A DNA stretch of 64,000 nucleotides from Luminiphilus sp. (lineage in GTDB: Bacteria; Pseudomonadota; Gammaproteobacteria; Pseudomonadales; Halieaceae), in contig CBFHHJ010000001.1 of NCBI GenBank assembly GCA_965655505.1, forward strand, positions 2,134-66,133, written 5' to 3'. The notes below the pieces were generated by a model. That model ran no database searches. It saw only the letters and a program-made list of their open reading frames with translations, and was not told the origin of the DNA. This document shows, piece by piece, positions 56,391 to 64,000 of this stretch; the first letter of the stretch is position 1; each line of letters starts with the position of its first letter. The translations under genes and the position numbers were made by a program.

Positions 56391-57206
56391 GTGACTATGG
56401 AGACAACTGCGTCGGGTATCTGCTTTCGCCATTGGCGACCCGAGGGCCAGCCCAGGGCAGCTGTGTTGCTGGTTCACGGGTTGGGCGAGCACAGCGGCCG
56501 ATACCAGCGAGTAGCCGAGTTACTTACGGCGCGGGGTTTTGCTGTGATTGCGCCCGACCATCTCGGTCACGGCGAGTCCCCGGGCACACGGGTATTTGTT
56601 GAGCAGTTTGATGACTATCTGGTGGGCGTGCGGGAGTGTCGCAGCCTCATTAAAGAGATTTATCCAAGTGCCCCCTGTTTTATTCTTGGCCATAGCATGG
56701 GTGGCTTAATAACGGGTCGACTGTTACTGGAAGATCAAGACCAATACGCAGGAGCGATGTTGAGCGGCCCTGCATTTGCCGCCGAACAGCCCCCCTCGGC
56801 GGTCGTGATGCTAATTGGCAGGCTGTTGGCCACCGTCGCACCGAAATCCGGGATGATTGCACTGGACTCCAGCGGCGTTAGTCGCGACCCGAAGGTGGTG
56901 GCTGCCTACAACGCTGACCCCTTGGTGCACCACGGTAAGATCACCGCGGCATTGGGCATCGCACTCTTTGACACAATGGCCAAAGTGATGGCCGAGGCGT
57001 CGTCGATAACATTGCCGCTTCTCATCATGCATGGGGGTGCCGATATCATGGCAGCGCCCGCGGGTTCTGAGCAGTTTTCGGCGGCGGTGAGCTCCGAGGA
57101 TTTGACCACCAAAATTCTACCGGGCTTGTTTCATGAAATATTTAATGAACCTGAGGGGGAAGAAATTATTGCCAGTTACGCTGACTGGGTAGAAGCGAGA
57201 CTGTAA
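56391..57206 (+). CDS. Monoacylglycerol lipase / lysophospholipase (alpha/beta hydrolase)
   Basis: HGLGEHSGRY, GHSMGG nucleophile elbow, HG..D, HEIFNEP. Confidence 0.88.
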   Translation: MTMETTASGICFRHWRPEGQPRAAVLLVHGLGEHSGRYQRVAELLTARGFAVIAPDHLGHGESPGTRVFVEQFDDYLVGVRECRSLIKEIYPSAPCFILGHSMGGLITGRLLLEDQDQYAGAMLSGPAFAAEQPPSAVVMLIGRLLATVAPKSGMIALDSSGVSRDPKVVAAYNADPLVHHGKITAALGIALFDTMAKVMAEASSITLPLLIMHGGADIMAAPAGSEQFSAAVSSEDLTTKILPGLFHEIFNEPEGEEIIASYADWVEARL

Positions 57207-58114
57207 TGCCTTCATCAACCCTCGCGGCGCCTGGTTCTATGCCCGCGCAGGTTTTAATCTGTGGCGCGGGCGGTCAACTGGGTTCAGAACTGCAGCTGAC
57301 CTGCCCCGCTGGTGTTCAGGTCGTCGCCCATGGTCGGGATGTTCTCGATATCAGCGATCCCGGGGCCATCGAGCGGGTACTCGACGCATCCCCGGTGCGC
57401 GCGATCATCAATGCTGCGGCGTATACGGCGGTTGATAAAGCTGAGACCGACCAAGAAGGTGCACGTCAAATCAATGCAGCCGCGCCTGATTATCTCGCGC
57501 GGGCCTGTGCGGCTCGCGGTTTGCATTTTCTTCACGTGTCGACGGACTTTGTTTTTGACGGTACCAAGGGCAGCCCCTATCTGCCCCATGACAATCCCAA
57601 CCCTTTGGGGGTTTACGGTGCCAGCAAGTTAGAAGGCGAGCAGGCAGTGCTGGCGAGTGGTGCCGATGCGCTGGTGCTGCGAACGGGCTGGGTGTACTCC
57701 CGGCATGGGGGCAATTTCGTTAAAACGATGCTGCGCTTAATGGCCGAGCGGGACGCGTTGTCGGTAGTGGAAGATCAAGTGGGTACGCCAACCTGGGCGA
57801 GGACGCTGGCTTCGACCTGCTGGTCACTGCTCGGCCACCCGCAGGCTATTGGCGTCTATCACTGGAGCGATGCCGGTGCATGCAGTTGGTACGACTTTGC
57901 CTGCGCAATTCGTGAGTTAGGACTTGAACTGGGTTTGTTAGACCGAGCTGCTCAGGTGAGCCCGATTCCAGCGGCTGGCTACCCGACGCCGGCGGCACGT
58001 CCTGCTTACAGCGTCCTCGATAAAACGACCACCCGAGAGTTGATTGGCTCGACGGGAAATGACTGGCGTAGTGAGTTGCGAGCGATGCTCATCGATTTAA
58101 AGTCGACAGGCTGA
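57206..58114 (+). CDS. rmlD: dTDP-4-dehydrorhamnose reductase
   Basis: GAGGQLG, NAAAYTAVDKAE, STDFVFDG, YGASK, DQVGTPT. Confidence 0.95.
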   Translation: MPSSTLAAPGSMPAQVLICGAGGQLGSELQLTCPAGVQVVAHGRDVLDISDPGAIERVLDASPVRAIINAAAYTAVDKAETDQEGARQINAAAPDYLARACAARGLHFLHVSTDFVFDGTKGSPYLPHDNPNPLGVYGASKLEGEQAVLASGADALVLRTGWVYSRHGGNFVKTMLRLMAERDALSVVEDQVGTPTWARTLASTCWSLLGHPQAIGVYHWSDAGACSWYDFACAIRELGLELGLLDRAAQVSPIPAAGYPTPAARPAYSVLDKTTTRELIGSTGNDWRSELRAMLIDLKSTG

Positions 58115-58125
58115 TACACAATAGC

Positions 58126-58171
58126 TAGATCAACATCTAGGTCAATAAATCGGTCAATGACAGGCCAATGA
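58126..58171. repeat. Degenerate 11-12-bp tandem repeats between rmlD and rmlB
   Basis: TAGATCAACATC|TAGGTCAATAAA|TCGGTCAATGA|CAGGCCAATGA. Confidence 0.55.
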
Positions 58172-58187
58172 CTTACAGGAACATACT

Positions 58188-59252
58188 ATGACGCGCTCTG
58201 TTCTGGTTACCGGTGCCGCCGGCTTCATTGGTGCTAACTTCATGTATCACTGGGCAGAGCAGCATCCGCAGGATACCTTGGTCGGGTTTGACGCCCTGAC
58301 CTATGCGGGCAACCGAGCCAGTTTAGCGCCCCTCGAGGCTGCCGAGCAGTTGGTATTTGTGCACGGGGACATTTGCGATAGCGCGACTGTTGCCAAGGCG
58401 ATTGCCGATCATCATGTCGACACCATCGTGCATTTTGCGGCGGAGAGTCACGTGGATCGATCAATCACCGGTCCCGATGCGTTTATTCAAACCAACGTTG
58501 TTGGCACGCACACGCTGTTAGCGGCGGCTCGCGAGGCCTGGCTATCGGGTTCTGGCAAGCCTCATCGATTCCATCACGTATCCACCGACGAGGTTTTTGG
58601 CTCCCTGAGTCCGGACGCGCCAGCGTTTACTGAGGATTTGCGTTACGAGCCGAACTCACCGTATTCGGCCAGTAAGGCGGGCAGTGATCACCTCGTGCGG
58701 GCGTACCACCACACATTCGGTCTCGATGTCAGCACCAGTAATTGCTCAAATAACTACGGGCCGTTTCATTTTCCTGAAAAACTCATCCCGCTGTGCCTTA
58801 CCAACATTCTCGATGGGCTGCCTTTGCCGGTGTACGGCGATGGCAGCAATATTCGTGACTGGCTCTACGTCCGCGACCACTGTCAGGGCATTGAGCGCGT
58901 AGTCCTTGCGGGCACGGTGGGTGAAACCTACAACGTCGGTGGAAACAACGAGTGGGCAAATATTGATATCGTTAAGCTGCTGTGCAGGCTCATGAATGAC
59001 TTGTTTGCCAGCGACGCTACATTAGCCAATCGATTCCCAGACTCTCCGGCAGTTAACGGCAATGCCGAGTCATTGATTACTTACGTCGAGGATCGGGCGG
59101 GGCACGATTGGCGCTACGCTATCGATGCCAGCAAGATAGAGTGTGAGCTTGGTTTTTCGCCAGCGGAAACTTTCGAAACCGGTATCGCAAAAACCCTTGA
59201 TTGGTATCTCGCCAATGAAGCTTGGTGGCGGCCCTTGCTCAAGGGTCGATAA
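58188..59252 (+). CDS. rmlB: dTDP-glucose 4,6-dehydratase
   Basis: GAAGFIG, HFAAESHVDRSI, HVSTDEV, YSASKA, CSNNYGP. Confidence 0.97.
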   Translation: MTRSVLVTGAAGFIGANFMYHWAEQHPQDTLVGFDALTYAGNRASLAPLEAAEQLVFVHGDICDSATVAKAIADHHVDTIVHFAAESHVDRSITGPDAFIQTNVVGTHTLLAAAREAWLSGSGKPHRFHHVSTDEVFGSLSPDAPAFTEDLRYEPNSPYSASKAGSDHLVRAYHHTFGLDVSTSNCSNNYGPFHFPEKLIPLCLTNILDGLPLPVYGDGSNIRDWLYVRDHCQGIERVVLAGTVGETYNVGGNNEWANIDIVKLLCRLMNDLFASDATLANRFPDSPAVNGNAESLITYVEDRAGHDWRYAIDASKIECELGFSPAETFETGIAKTLDWYLANEAWWRPLLKGR

Positions 59253-59335
59253 GAGCGCCGGGGTTCAACCACGGGCGCTAAACGATGTGTGTTTGGGCAG
59301 TCGCGATTGGAGTTAGTGTCAGGCTTTTGGCGCTT

Positions 59336-59887
59336 CTAAAACCGGAAAAGTGGAATGTCTGCCCAAGCTCGGGCTTCAGCATCTTTGGCTGAGAGTGCCG
59401 GCGCCGCGCTGTCGATTAGCGGCCAATCAATACCCACCGTAGGATCATCCCAAGCAAGACTCACCTCGCTTTGCGGGTGGTAGTAATCCGTGCATTTATA
59501 GAGAAAGTCAGCACTTTCGCTCAGCACGTAAAAGCCGTGGGCGAATCCCGGGGGTACCCACAGCATCTCGCTGCGCGCAGCGGTAAGCGTGCAGCCAAAC
59601 CATTGGCCACAGGTGGGTGAATCGGCGCGCAGATCGACGGCGACGTCGAAGACTTCGCCTGCAGTGACGCGGACGAGCTTGCCCTGGGTATGCTCGGTTT
59701 GAAAATGTAGGCCGCGCAGAATCCCCTGCCGTGACCGACTGTGATTATCCTGCACGAAATCGGCGGTGATGCCGACATCGGCGAAGCTGCGCTTGTTCCA
59801 GCTCTCTAGAAAGAAGCCGCGTTCGTCCCCGAATACTTTGGGTCGAAGAACGACAACACCCGATAGCGGGGTGTGCTCAATATCCAT
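59336..59887 (-). CDS. rmlC: dTDP-4-dehydrorhamnose 3,5-epimerase
   Basis: [30 protein letters not shown]; ATG 59887. Confidence 0.96.
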
Positions 59888-60782
59888 CCCAGTACACTCC
59901 CTCGTCACGAAGCAGGCTTTCTAGGTACACGCCATATCCGCTTTTGGTCAGCGGCTTTGCTAGCTTGAGTAATTGCTCACTATCTATGTAGCGCATACGA
60001 AACGCAATTTCTTCGGGGCACGCGACTTTGAGCCCTTGGCGCTCCTCCACTACCCGAATAAAGTTGCCGGCGTCTAGCAAGCTATTGTGTGTGCCCGTAT
60101 CGAGCCAGGCGGTGCCTCGAGACATGACTTCAACGCGCAAGTCTCCTCGTTCGAGGTAGGCTTTGTTGATGTCGGTGATCTCTAGCTCACCTCGGGGAGA
60201 GGGTTTGATATTGCGGGCTATGTTTACAACATCATTGTCGTAAAAATACAGTCCGGTAACAGCATATTGCGACCGGGGTTGCTCGGGCTTCTCTTCGATG
60301 CCAATTGCTTTGCCTTCTCGATCAAACTCTACGACCCCGTAACGTTCGGGGTCCTGCACGTAATAAGCAAAGACTGAGGCGCCCTCGGTTCTTTGGGCGG
60401 CACTACGTAACTTTTGAGTCAGGCCGCCCCCGTAGAAGATGTTGTCCCCAAGAACCAGCGCCGCCGGGTCGGAGCCAATGAAATCAGCCCCTAGAATGAA
60501 TGCCTGAGCGAGCCCGTCGGGGCTTGGCTGAACGGTGTACTCAATGTTGATTCCCCATCGACTGCCGTCCCCCAAAAGCTCCGAGAACGCAGCCTGATCT
60601 CGCGGCGTGGTGATAATCAACACATCGCGAATACCCGACAGCATCAAAGTCGCTAGGGGGTAGTAGATCATGGGTTTGTCGTAGACGGGCATCAGCTGTT
60701 TGCTGACCGTGCTTGTAAGCGGGTGCAGGCGTGTGCCTGATCCTCCGGCTAGGATAATTCCTTTGAGCTTCTGTTCAGACAT
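59877..60782 (-). CDS. rmlA: Glucose-1-phosphate thymidylyltransferase
   Basis: [43 protein letters not shown]; ATG 60782. Confidence 0.97.
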
Positions 60783-60908
60783 GACATTGGGTTGCTTTGA
60801 GATGCAGGAATGAGTGTAGCCCGCCAAACAATAGTTGTCAGGATGTCATGGCGCCACACAATCGGGCGCTGGTAAACTTGTGCCTTACCGCTCGTCTGGA
60901 GAAAGCCC

Positions 60909-62207
60909 ATTAACGCCCCCGCGTCATCACCCGGGCAGCCTAATGCTGCCGCGGAGTTTGTTCCTTTAACGGCGTCGCAGCCCCTGCGGATTGCGCTGCT
61001 GGGTTATCGTTCGGCCCCGTTTTCGGGTGGGCAGGGTATTTATCTCAAATACCTGAGCCGTGCGCTGGTAAAGCTTGGACATGACGTGACAGTTATCTCT
61101 GGCCCTCCCTATCCCCACTTAGACGAAGGTATTCCGCTAGTTGAGCTACCAAGCCTTGACTTGTATACCCATGGATTACGATCTGTTGGTCCGAACCAGC
61201 TGCTTCGCGACCCGCTTGCGCGTGCCGAGTGGGTGAGCAAGTTAACCGGTGGATTTGTTGAGCCATGGACCTTTGGAGAGCGGGTGCGTGACTGGCTGCT
61301 GCCGCGACTTCATGAGTTTGATGTGGTGCACGACAATCAAACCCTGGCGGATGGCATCTTGGACATCCAGCGCAGCGGTATTCCTCTGGTCGCGACGATT
61401 CACCATCCAATCACTCGCGACCGGCGTCTGGCGATGACCGCTGAAAGTCGCTGGTACCGCAAACTGCTGGTCCAGCGCTGGCATAGTTTCCTGAGCATGC
61501 AGCAGCGGGTTGCTCGATCCTTAGACCATATTATTACCGTCTCGGGCGCGTCTAAGCACGATATCGTGGCAGATTTCGCTGTTGATCCCGCCCGCGTTGA
61601 GGTATTGCATAACGGGGTTGATGCGGCGTTGTTTAGGCCAATACCCGAGATCGAGCGCAAACCAGCACAAATTATGGCAACCGCGTCAGCGGATACCCCC
61701 ACGAAGGGGCTTCAGGTACTACTGCGCGCCGCTGCGCGTATGGTCAAGCATCATCCTGAATTGACGCTGCTGCTTATCGGCAAGCCAAAATCGGGTGGAG
61801 ACACCCTTAAATTGGTTGATGACCTCCATCTGACAGACCGGGTTCGGTGGGTTAGCGATGTCGATCATCAAACAATGGTCGAGCTGTATGCCGAGAGTAC
61901 GATCGCCGTCGTGCCCTCGCTATACGAAGGGTTTGGCCTTCCGGCAGTTGAGGCGATGGCCTGCGGTATCCCTCTGGTGTCTTCCGATGGCGGTGCGCTG
62001 CCCGAGGTCGTGGGCGACGGCGGGCTCATTGTGCCCGCCGGTGATGACCGCGCTTTGGCGGACAGCTTGGAGCAACTTTTGACCGATGAAGGCGCTCGGG
62101 CCGAGCTGGGCAGCCGTGCCCGTCAACGAGTAGAACAGCATTTTTGCTGGGACGTCTGCGCGACGCGATTGCTCGCGTACTACCGCGAGCGGGTGCTGTC
62201 GTGCTGA
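60909..62207 (+). CDS. GT4 glycosyltransferase (ManT-like), probable non-canonical ATT start
   Basis: The in-frame conserved N-terminal strand LRIALLGYRS...GGQGIYL...GHDV lies upstream of the ORF-track GTG 61086; no ATG/GTG/TTG back to the stop at 60873; GGAGA-6nt-ATT at 60909; YEGFGLPAVEAMACG donor motif. Confidence 0.88.
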   Translation: MNAPASSPGQPNAAAEFVPLTASQPLRIALLGYRSAPFSGGQGIYLKYLSRALVKLGHDVTVISGPPYPHLDEGIPLVELPSLDLYTHGLRSVGPNQLLRDPLARAEWVSKLTGGFVEPWTFGERVRDWLLPRLHEFDVVHDNQTLADGILDIQRSGIPLVATIHHPITRDRRLAMTAESRWYRKLLVQRWHSFLSMQQRVARSLDHIITVSGASKHDIVADFAVDPARVEVLHNGVDAALFRPIPEIERKPAQIMATASADTPTKGLQVLLRAAARMVKHHPELTLLLIGKPKSGGDTLKLVDDLHLTDRVRWVSDVDHQTMVELYAESTIAVVPSLYEGFGLPAVEAMACGIPLVSSDGGALPEVVGDGGLIVPAGDDRALADSLEQLLTDEGARAELGSRARQRVEQHFCWDVCATRLLAYYRERVLSC

Positions 62208-62986
62208 CCATCGACTTTAGTTGGTTCCCTTTAGTTTCAGGTCAAAATTGCTTGGACGTGGGCTGCGGTGAGGGTCGGCACAGCCTCGCCGCATATTTAC
62301 GGCCCGGTGTTGATGTGGTTGGACTGGATTTGTCTGATGAAGACCTTGCTACGGCAAACACCCGCATCGCCGATATGGAGGTCTTCGATCCGGAAGGGTC
62401 AGTACGGTTTATGCGCGGCGATGCCACTCGGCTGCCATTTCCCGACCATAGCTTTGATCGAGTCATCTGCAGCGAAGTACTCGAGCATATACCCAATTAT
62501 CTCAATGTCCTCGAGGAGTTGGTGCGCGTGCTTAAGCCCGGCGGAAAACTTGCCATCAGCGTGCCGCGGGCGTGGCCCGAGTGGCTGTGTTGGCAGTTGA
62601 GTGAGGGGTATCGCACGACCCCGGGGGGGCATATCCGAATTTTTGATCGCACGCACTTACGTCGCGAGGTCACGCGTTACGGTTTGAACTGCTATCACCA
62701 ACACGGTGCTCACGCGTTACACGTGCCTTATTGGTGGCTGCGTTGCCTGTTTTGGCGCTCTGGCGAAGATAATTGGTTGGTGGGCGCGTATCACAAATTG
62801 CTGGTATGGGATCTGATGCAGCGTCCGGCGATTACGCGCTGGATCGAAAAGCTCACTAACCCCTGGATGGGAAAGAGTGTGGTGCTGTATTTCAATAAGC
62901 CTACCGAGCCATACGCCGAGCCTTCTGATGAACAGCGTCCAGTCGAGGAAGACGCAATGGACAGTCGTCAGGAAGCAGCGGTTTGA
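62201..62986 (+). CDS. Class I SAM-dependent methyltransferase
   Basis: GTG 62201 (MLTIDF), LDVGCGEGRH, GDA..LPF, SEVLEHI, LKPGG, GGHIRIF; overlaps the GT stop. Confidence 0.9.
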   Translation: MLTIDFSWFPLVSGQNCLDVGCGEGRHSLAAYLRPGVDVVGLDLSDEDLATANTRIADMEVFDPEGSVRFMRGDATRLPFPDHSFDRVICSEVLEHIPNYLNVLEELVRVLKPGGKLAISVPRAWPEWLCWQLSEGYRTTPGGHIRIFDRTHLRREVTRYGLNCYHQHGAHALHVPYWWLRCLFWRSGEDNWLVGAYHKLLVWDLMQRPAITRWIEKLTNPWMGKSVVLYFNKPTEPYAEPSDEQRPVEEDAMDSRQEAAV

Positions 62987-64000
62987 CGGGGCTGTATCTC
63001 AGTAAAGGGTTGTTTCCTGCAGAATTCTTGCGCCCCACCGTGGACTTCATTTTGGGAGTTCAGACCAAGGAAGGAGAGATCCCTTGGTTTGAAAACGGTC
63101 ATTCGGACCCCTGGGATCACACGGAAGCGGCAATGGGTTTATCGATTGCTGGCGAGTTTGCGGCTGCTGAGCGCGCTTATCGCTGGCTCGCGGCAAACCA
63201 GCTGCCCGACGGCAGTTGGTGGCGGAACTACCGTTCTGGCGAACCCGAGCAAGCGGATCGCCGTGAATCCAATTATGTCGCTTACATCGCAACGGGTGTC
63301 TGGCATCACTACCTGATTTCTGAGGACAAAGGGTTTTTAGCCGAGCTGTTTCCGGTGGTTGATCGCGCAGTAGAGTTCGTGCTCACGTTGCAAAGCGCAC
63401 ACGGCGAGATTGATTGGGCAGTTGATGCCGCCGGTGCGCCTATGGGAGATGCGCTGGTTACTGGTTGCAGCTCGATATTTAAAAGCCTCGAATGCGCCTG
63501 CCACATTGCATCGAGCCTCGGCATTGAGCGCGATCACTGGTGGCTTGCCCGTGAGCGCTTGGGGGTTGCTTTGCGGCAACGTCCAGAGCGCTTTGACCGA
63601 ACCTGGGCGAGCAAGGCGCGCTACTCAATGGACTGGTTTTATCCCGTGCTGACTGGCGTCGTTCAGGGGCAGGCGGCCGGCGATCGGCTTCGCGCCCGCT
63701 GGCACGAATTCGTAGAGCCCGGCCTAGGTTGCCGGTGCGAAACTCAAGAGCCCTGGGTTACCGTCGCCGAATCCTGTGAGCTGACGATGGCGTTGTTGGC
63801 TGCGGGGGATCGCCCCCGGGCGGTGGAAGTCTTCAGCTGGCTCAGTCAGTGGCGCGCAGCCGATGGCGCTTGGTGGACGGGCTATCAGTTAGTTGAGGAT
63901 TTACTCTGGCCCGACGAAAAGCCCACGTGGACCGCGGGCGCGATACTGTTGGCGGCGGATGCCTTAACAGCGCATACAGCTGCTGCATCGTTATTTACCG
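62983..64000 (+). CDS. (alpha/alpha)6-toroid 'prenyltransferase/squalene-cyclase-like' protein, possible MmpH-like glycoside hydrolase (runs off window)
   Basis: Not in ORF track (no stop in window). TTG 62983 overlaps the MT stop; hand translation MTGLYLSKGLFP...Q..EGEIPWFENGHSDPWDHTEAAMGL...Q.PDGSWW...SMDWFYPVL...PWVTVAESCE...WP.EKPTWTAGA. Confidence 0.85.
   Translation, partial: MTGLYLSKGLFPAEFLRPTVDFILGVQTKEGEIPWFENGHSDPWDHTEAAMGLSIAGEFAAAERAYRWLAANQLPDGSWWRNYRSGEPEQADRRESNYVAYIATGVWHHYLISEDKGFLAELFPVVDRAVEFVLTLQSAHGEIDWAVDAAGAPMGDALVTGCSSIFKSLECACHIASSLGIERDHWWLARERLGVALRQRPERFDRTWASKARYSMDWFYPVLTGVVQGQAAGDRLRARWHEFVEPGLGCRCETQEPWVTVAESCELTMALLAAGDRPRAVEVFSWLSQWRAADGAWWTGYQLVEDLLWPDEKPTWTAGAILLAADALTAHTAAASLFT

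Follow-up and report, generated by a model that had tools for sequence, protein, structure and literature searches.

The window analysed here is a stretch of 64,000 nucleotides from Luminiphilus sp. (assembly GCA_965655505.1, contig CBFHHJ010000001.1, positions 2,134 to 66,133 of the forward strand; G000:C1:2134-66133). Its end holds three genes that are orthologues of mycobacterial ManT, pMeT3 and MmpH, proteins of the cluster for 3-O-methylmannose polysaccharide (MMP), and a fourth orthologue, meT1, lies just beyond the window edge (Table 1). An earlier note on this DNA, made from the sequence alone, had described three coupled genes with overlaps of 7 nt (manT/pmeT3) and 4 nt (pmeT3/mmpH), and the coordinates of the open reading frames (ORFs) confirm this. 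The glycosyltransferase family 4 (GT4), methyltransferase and toroid motifs that it named are all present, including RIALLGYRS..GGQG.Y in the GT4 frame, and the MeT1-like gene that it expected past position 64,000 is there, on the minus strand, converging on mmpH with abutting stops. The 7-nt manT/pmeT3 overlap also occurs in the syntenic Mycobacteriales locus. Each of the four genes is single-copy in this genome, which is 68% complete, and none of their products has a strongly hydrophobic segment (the highest 19-residue Kyte-Doolittle mean is 1.47).

Table 1. Features of the MMP-type locus and its upstream neighbours, in window numbering.
Feature	Position	Strand	Basis
manT orthologue; GT4, GT-B fold; predicted GDP-mannose alpha-(1->4)-mannosyltransferase; 432 aa from non-canonical ATT	60909..62207	+	7QSG match; kept residues; start-codon comparison
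GGAG Shine-Dalgarno-like site, 7 nt ahead of ATT; likely manT translation start	60898..60911	+	Codon comparison
pmeT3 orthologue; class I S-adenosylmethionine (SAM) methyltransferase, putative 3-O-methyltransferase; 261 aa; GTG start at 62201	62201..62986	+	Methyltransf_11; syntenic Mycobacteriales gene
mmpH orthologue; predicted (alpha/alpha)6-barrel endo-mannosidase; 357 aa; TTG start at 62983	62983..64056 (final 56 nt outside window)	+	7QSJ match; model
meT1 orthologue; predicted 1-O-methyltransferase; ATG at 64639, stop at 64057	64057-64639 in extended numbering (G000:C1:66190-66772), outside window	-	6G7D match
dTDP-rhamnose genes, two convergent pairs	57206-60827	rmlD-rmlB +; rmlA-rmlC -	
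alpha/beta-hydrolase, lysophospholipase type	56391-57206		Motif

In Pfam and NCBIfam the cluster proteins fall only into generic families, and the NCBIfam matches shown for the GT4 protein all fall below cut-off. The Protein Data Bank (PDB) gives more to work with. The GT4 protein matches ManT (7QSG) at E 5.7e-98, with the runner-up at 8e-27 and the members of its fold family MshA and PimA at 3e-21 or worse. It shares 39-48% identity with actinobacterial ManT orthologues. Since non-orthologous mannosyltransferases share less than 35% with ManT (PMC9883506; this paper and PMC4555173 are cited throughout for the portions covered), the window protein is read as a ManT orthologue. The only sequence match of the mmpH product is MmpH itself (7QSJ, E 3.2e-89, 44% identity), and its AlphaFold model (pLDDT 95) aligns with 7QSJ at a TM score of 0.90, the next-best folds standing at E 5e-9 and 17% identity. 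The fold family is that of the (alpha/alpha)6 glycosidases of GH15 and GH125, whose barrels have about 17% identity to the window protein. The C-terminal 155 residues of MeT1 match only MeT1 entries (6G7D, 6G80 and 6H40, E 1e-36). For pMeT3 the PDB search gave no solved orthologue; the protein is 47% identical over 246 residues (E 4e-71) to the product of the Mycobacteriales gene in the same position, and its next-best match within its own genome scores 50 bits. The label Mycobacteriales is assigned, for loci L124, L126-L129 and L134, from likeness to 7QSJ and from the type I fatty acid synthase (FAS-I) of genome G754.

The earlier note had likened these motifs and this gene order to the mycobacterial MMP cluster. 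The likeness is upheld by the alignments, by structure, by the order of the genes and by the catalytic residues, with 7QSG, 7QSJ and 6G7D each the sole or far-best PDB match. The best PDB sequence matches of ManT, MmpH and MeT1, and the best structure match of MmpH, are the MMP enzymes and not lipopolysaccharide (LPS)-core GT4 enzymes or prenyltransferases. One candidate interpretation of meT1 also fell away. The gene contains a 10-N scaffold gap, which is the source of an apparent frameshift, and the idea that it is a pseudogene was ruled out on this ground. Contigs of two other marine metagenome runs span the gap, adding 26 bases and keeping the frame, and the translation of the bridging bases reads as a SAM-binding motif common to the homologues.

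The residues described for the characterised enzymes (PMC9883506) were mapped by hand onto the alignments and then across the homologues, excluding duplicates and two loci from unpublished genomes (L119 and L142). In MmpH, 10 of the 11 residues are identical (D47, W49, D50, N101, T163, M215, Y219, E262, E265 and W315). The eleventh, F102, is a Tyr, as it is in 20/20 own-genus rows, and the glycerol-binding subsite is otherwise kept. E262, E265, W49, M215 and Y219 are invariant in all 133 homologues. ManT keeps the equivalents of G15, H142, K240, E313, G314, F315, L317 and E321 (in the residue numbering of the window's ManT G15 is G40, H142 is H165, K240 is K266, E313 is E340 and E321 is E348), and K240, E313, G314 and F315 do not vary in 124/124 homologues. 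L291, a main-chain contact, is replaced by Val. Every residue tested by mutagenesis is kept: D47, D50 and E262 in MmpH, and K240, E313 and E321 in ManT. In columns where Actinomycetota and Proteobacteria together show at least 95% conservation, the four cluster proteins agree almost without fail (48/48, 67/67, 43/43 and 26/27 columns). The same alignment bears on the catalytic acid of MmpH, the choice of which is left open in PMC9883506. Asp50 becomes Asn in 10/10 alphaproteobacterial rows and in 18/18 actinobacterial rows outside the Streptomycetales and Mycobacteriales; 132 of the 133 rows retain Asp47. This pattern of conservation favours Asp47 as the catalytic acid.

One peculiarity of the window cluster is the beginning of manT. 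In the window, the stretch from the upstream stop to the first conserved motif of ManT contains no ATG, GTG or TTG. In the 17 copies compared within the genus, among them the window's own, the codon at the corresponding N-terminal I-N-A-P position is ATT 8 times, GTG 5 times, ATC 3 times and ATG once (loci L164-L180; one further fetched region is without the gene start). Several other Halieaceae copies (among loci L032-L044 and L059) have an ATC preceded by a Shine-Dalgarno-like site at a similar place. Because the position alternates among start-capable codons behind such a site, manT likely starts at a conserved non-AUG codon, AUU or AUC. Starts of this kind reduce translation, as in infC and EbpA. 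Automatic gene callers would shorten manT here.

How widespread is the cluster? MmpH is present in 24/24 same-genus genomes and in 9/16 genomes from other families of the order. When 250 other genomes were drawn evenly from across the order, 92 had it. In a draw across the class, 7 of 299 other genomes have strong matches, six of the seven genomes being 0.9-2.1 Mb in size, and 3 weak matches were judged not to be MmpH. Among Actinomycetota the count, in which the unpublished genomes G580 and G627 are included, is 35/201. A survey of named carriers covered the best 80 of 596 confirmed matches. Carriers among the matches listed include Haliea, Halioglobus, Seongchinamella, Zhongshania, Spongiibacter, Microbulbifer, Cellvibrio, Pseudomaricurvus, SAR86, Parvibaculum, Smithella and Streptomyces; Teredinibacter, Desulfovermiculus and one Chloroflexota bin are further carriers. 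By hand count, the order manT, pmeT3, mmpH holds in 77 of the 80 named loci and a convergent meT1 lies within 6 kb in 57/80. Of the 23 loci without a nearby meT1, the 4 that were checked all encode it elsewhere in the genome. Neighbouring genes vary in Spongiibacteraceae, Cellvibrionaceae, Alphaproteobacteria and Syntrophaceae. The cluster is an old lineage-wide feature of the Pseudomonadales, found also in SAR86, Alphaproteobacteria and Desulfobacterota.

The earlier note had called for trees that would separate transfer from ancestry. The MmpH tree (135 rows, quick IQ-TREE, unrooted) places Actinomycetota on one side of a branch with support 98, groups Desulfobacterota-type rows and Alphaproteobacteria at 100 each, and puts the window within a clade of its own genus (99), with the family-level groups of the order recovered. 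The ManT, pMeT3 and MeT1 trees (FastTree, unrooted, run without the long-branch loci L022-L028) give 99-100 for Actinomycetota and 98-100 for the genus. Actinomycetota and the genus are thus apart in all four trees, and no proteobacterial row is nested among Actinomycetota in any of them. The cluster has a GC content of 0.55-0.59 and a third-position GC (GC3) of 0.59-0.62, equal to its neighbours. Among 72,556 plasmid records there is one MmpH match, in an 11.9-Mb Nonomuraea record. Recent transfer from mycobacteria or Streptomyces is ruled out by GC and GC3, by the 24/24 presence in the genus and by the four trees. Since the trees agree and base composition matches that of the neighbours, the four-gene block has been inherited as a unit over a long time; one ancient transfer, whichever its direction, may still lie behind the distribution.

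What does the cluster make? MMP is a linear chain of 11-14 alpha-1,4-linked 3-O-methylmannose units with a methyl aglycon. In M. hassiacum, MmpH cuts MMP into 4-8-mers, ManT extends them from GDP-mannose and MeT1 caps free reducing ends (PMC9883506). The window cluster shares with the mycobacterial one (M. hassiacum and M. smegmatis; 7QSG, pMeT3, 7QSJ and 6G7D) the four orthologues, their order and orientation, the convergent meT1, the 7-nt overlap, the fold and all mutagenesis-tested residues. It differs in having a Gram-negative marine host in which no FAS-I was found and a bifunctional ManC that supplies GDP-mannose, in the replacement of ManT Asp293 by His and MmpH Phe102 by Tyr, and in a ManT with an N-terminal extension of about 25 residues and a likely AUU start. 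By analogy, and with a probability of roughly 0.7, the cluster makes a cytoplasmic MMP-like polymer, a short 3-O-methylated alpha-(1->4)-mannan with a 1-O-methyl cap. Mature chains would be cut by MmpH at internal sites to give 4-8-mers, primers that ManT would elongate with mannose from ManC-supplied GDP-mannose; pMeT3 would methylate O3 of the newly added residues; and MeT1 would cap the freed reducing ends. New chains would in this way be replicated from older ones. The earlier note had spoken of a glycan or a glycolipid. Of these a free oligosaccharide is the likelier, since it is the 1-OH at the reducing end that MeT1 caps (PMC9883506).

The predicted sugar supply would fit an MMP-like product in most carriers. 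The genome itself has a full ManC adjoining a galU-like gene, and ManC (GMP-PMI) is over cut-off in 38/41 genomes of the genus. In the order it is found in 85 of 92 MmpH-positive and 123 of 158 MmpH-negative genomes (hand count), an association that is supportive but weak because ManC is common.

Several findings weigh against an MMP-like product. Asp293 of ManT, the proposed guanine contact (PMC9883506), is a His in the window. It is Asp in 19/19 Streptomycetales and 6/6 Mycobacteriales and mostly Thr, Asn or Ser in Pseudomonadales, and it also varies among the remaining Actinomycetota. The specificity for a GDP-mannose donor is for this reason not secured, and this change is the sole residue-level result in the alignments that speaks against a strict GDP-mannose reading. 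Seven of the 92 carriers in the order, mostly fragmented assemblies, are without a ManC match. Two SAR86-like genomes, G078 (L027) and G270 (L025), hold all four genes and are 97% complete, and no full ManC was found in them. At 0.9 and 1.2 Mb, they have, judged by eye, only GalU-, RmlA- and MurU-like enzymes, and they may use another donor sugar or obtain it by another route. Identity to the groups with proven producers is 41-53%, near or under the 50% at which the authors of PMC9883506 called an MMP cluster. In the portions covered of the same paper, pMeT3 is only the presumed 3-O-methyltransferase of mycobacteria, and Nocardia, with a 69% ManT homologue, is not known as an MMP maker. The proteobacterial product is predicted from genes.

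Perhaps the same four-enzyme logic serves a related polymethylated glycan of the cytoplasm that departs from MMP in its sugar, donor, length or decoration, such as a glucan derived from UDP-glucose or an acetylated chain. The poor conservation of Asp293 outside Streptomycetales and Mycobacteriales would fit such a product, as would the carriers without detectable ManC, the Tyr at F102 throughout the genus rows and the Asn at D50 in Alphaproteobacteria and other Actinomycetota; hexapeptide-repeat acyltransferases also flank the cluster in three loci. However, no change is seen in the loop that contacts the sugar (E313-G-F-x-L317) or in most of the MmpH cleft, ManC is present in the window's own genome and nearly the whole genus, and mycobacterial MmpH is highly specific, leaving 6-O-methylglucose lipopolysaccharide (MGLP) and synthetic mannosides uncut (PMC9883506). 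Another glycan is on this evidence unlikely, though it is the most credible of the alternatives. MGLP is itself instructive. Like MMP, this mycobacterial compound is a polymethylated glycan with alpha-1,4 linkages that stays inside the cell, and it has been proposed as a binder of acyl-CoAs (PMC4555173), but its sugar and genes are different, and ManT is only 28-33% like the glucosyltransferases of MGLP and glycogen synthesis (PMC9883506). The acetylated MMP (AMMP) of Streptomyces griseus is reported as a related polymer (PMC9883506), and the Streptomyces cluster has the manT-pmeT3-mmpH block at 43-50% identity. The Streptomyces loci differ from the window in that meT1 is at least 2 kb from mmpH, and the window cluster has no adjoining acyltransferase.

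The position of the cluster between rml genes and waaA raises the question of whether it modifies LPS or another envelope glycan, for instance through a methylated mannose cap or an O-antigen. waaA, hldE-like or heptosyltransferase genes lie near the cluster in many Halieaceae and SAR86 loci, and PMC9883506 cites a 3-O-methylmannose O-antigen of Oligotropha. Yet the same block occurs in Actinomycetota, which have no LPS, and most other scanned carriers have variable neighbours rather than an LPS-gene neighbourhood. A lipid-linked glycan would not offer MeT1 the free reducing end that it requires, and the conserved block holds no flippase, polymerase, ligase or ABC exporter. An envelope function is hence improbable. 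Still further from the evidence is the proposal of a prenyltransferase or terpene cyclase activity for the barrel protein, with a glycosylated, methylated terpenoid as the operon's product. NCBI homologues of mmpH do carry the names 'prenyltransferase' and 'prenyltransferase/squalene oxidase repeat', the protein has QxxDG.W repeats and there are weak fold matches to terpene cyclases (TM 0.53-0.61). The far closer match in identity and fold to a characterised hydrolase, with the catalytic acids kept, makes this very improbable, and one JGI record names a homologue MMP endo-(1,4)-3-O-methyl-alpha-D-mannosidase. Named homologues include those of Luminiphilus syltensis (70%) and Halioglobus. The finding would re-annotate a large family mislabelled 'prenyltransferase'.

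If the product is MMP-like, what would it do? The in vivo role of MMP is an old open question. The only effect given for the mycobacterial knockout is a generation time longer by 18% at 15 C, and MGLP might be compensating (PMC9883506). The classical partner of these polysaccharides is FAS-I (PMC4555173). FAS-I (PF08354) was not found in the 4 genus genomes searched, three of them 98-100% complete, and was found in a Mycobacteriales control. This speaks against a role through FAS-I in the genus, and bears on the role and not on the identity of the cluster. For the methyl-lined helix of such a polymer, the most plausible ligands would be long acyl chains or acyl-CoAs. With no FAS-I found in the genus, we infer that the role would be to buffer acyl-CoA pools, in fatty-acid uptake, beta-oxidation and neutral-lipid synthesis, rather than to stimulate FAS-I.

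One clue is the number of acyl-CoA dehydrogenases. At least 10 confirmed matches are found in 79/92 carriers vs 79/158 non-carriers among the order genomes, and family medians of candidates are 8.7 vs 4.0 per Mb (21 carrier and 33 non-carrier families). Confirmed matches were counted only up to 14, the candidates of the first look serve as a proxy, and related genomes are not independent. The exceptions run both ways: 52 of 115 genomes with at least 14 dehydrogenase matches have no MmpH, and 5 of 54 dehydrogenase-poor genomes have it. The richness fits an acyl-CoA-buffer role without showing one, and the link is loose. A link to wax-ester synthase gave no pattern (present in 2 of 5 genomes).

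A more tentative proposal, somewhat short of even odds, is that the cluster encodes a widespread and ancient acyl-chain chaperone. Polymethylated polysaccharides would then not be an actinobacterial speciality. MMP would be made by abundant lipid-scavenging ocean bacteria (Halieaceae, Spongiibacteraceae, SAR86 and Parvibaculales) and by fatty-acid-oxidising anaerobes (Smithella and Syntrophaceae), buffering long acyl-CoAs without FAS-I, with Halieaceae output throttled by the AUU/AUC start of the polymerase. If so, a self-primed methyl-mannan would be an unrecognised but common product of marine bacterioplankton. The finding would also direct attention to a methylated glycan that has not been sought in common marine bacteria, and if cultured Gram-negative carriers without FAS-I do make MMP, they offer a cleaner background for ideas of acyl-CoA buffering and cold adaptation.

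The cluster is not wholly new. The earlier note had held that such a product was not described in Proteobacteria. This stands for the polymer and for the whole cluster, no report of either in Proteobacteria having been found in the literature searched, with subscription journals outside its coverage, and MMP isolation is reported only from Actinomycetota in the literature covered. It does not stand for MmpH. The main text of PMC9883506, in the portions covered, does not mention Proteobacteria, but its peer-review file mentions MmpH homologues of 40-51% identity in some Proteobacteria, with conserved binding residues.

The wider surroundings offer some minor observations. The TetR gene that the earlier note proposed to look for past position 64,000 is not adjacent: the neighbours are instead rmlA upstream and waaA beyond meT1, and no TetR was found among the 55 of 135 neighbour ORFs scanned in 13 loci at E 1e-12. 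A scan for promoters and terminators was uninformative, with 2 and 5 sites vs 1.9 and 4.0 expected by chance. No RNA runs are among the listed sequencing runs that hold the locus, and the best-matching runs are marine metagenomes. Named from their translations, the flanking genes are rmlD/rmlB and rmlC/rmlA upstream, and waaA, tolC and parE past meT1. In the window rmlA is divergent from manT, and it stands ahead of manT in many Halieaceae loci. The alpha/beta-hydrolase gene lies between ilvE and rmlD.

The cluster itself also has variants elsewhere. A deltaproteobacterial locus (L089) has mmpH without the other three genes within 6 kb. Five MmpH homologues (P0159, P0163, P0165, P0187 and P0189) are 450-740 residues long with the barrel at the C-terminus, which suggests fusions with another enzyme. 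A hexapeptide-repeat acyltransferase gene adjoins the cluster in Pseudomaricurvus and Microbulbifer (L053:7990-8709 and L060:7878-8597), and in a Syntrophaceae locus (L081, 6953-7750 and 7758-9326) a hexapeptide acyltransferase gene and a B12 radical-SAM gene lie between mmpH and meT1. Such flanking acyltransferases could give acylated variants like Streptomyces AMMP.

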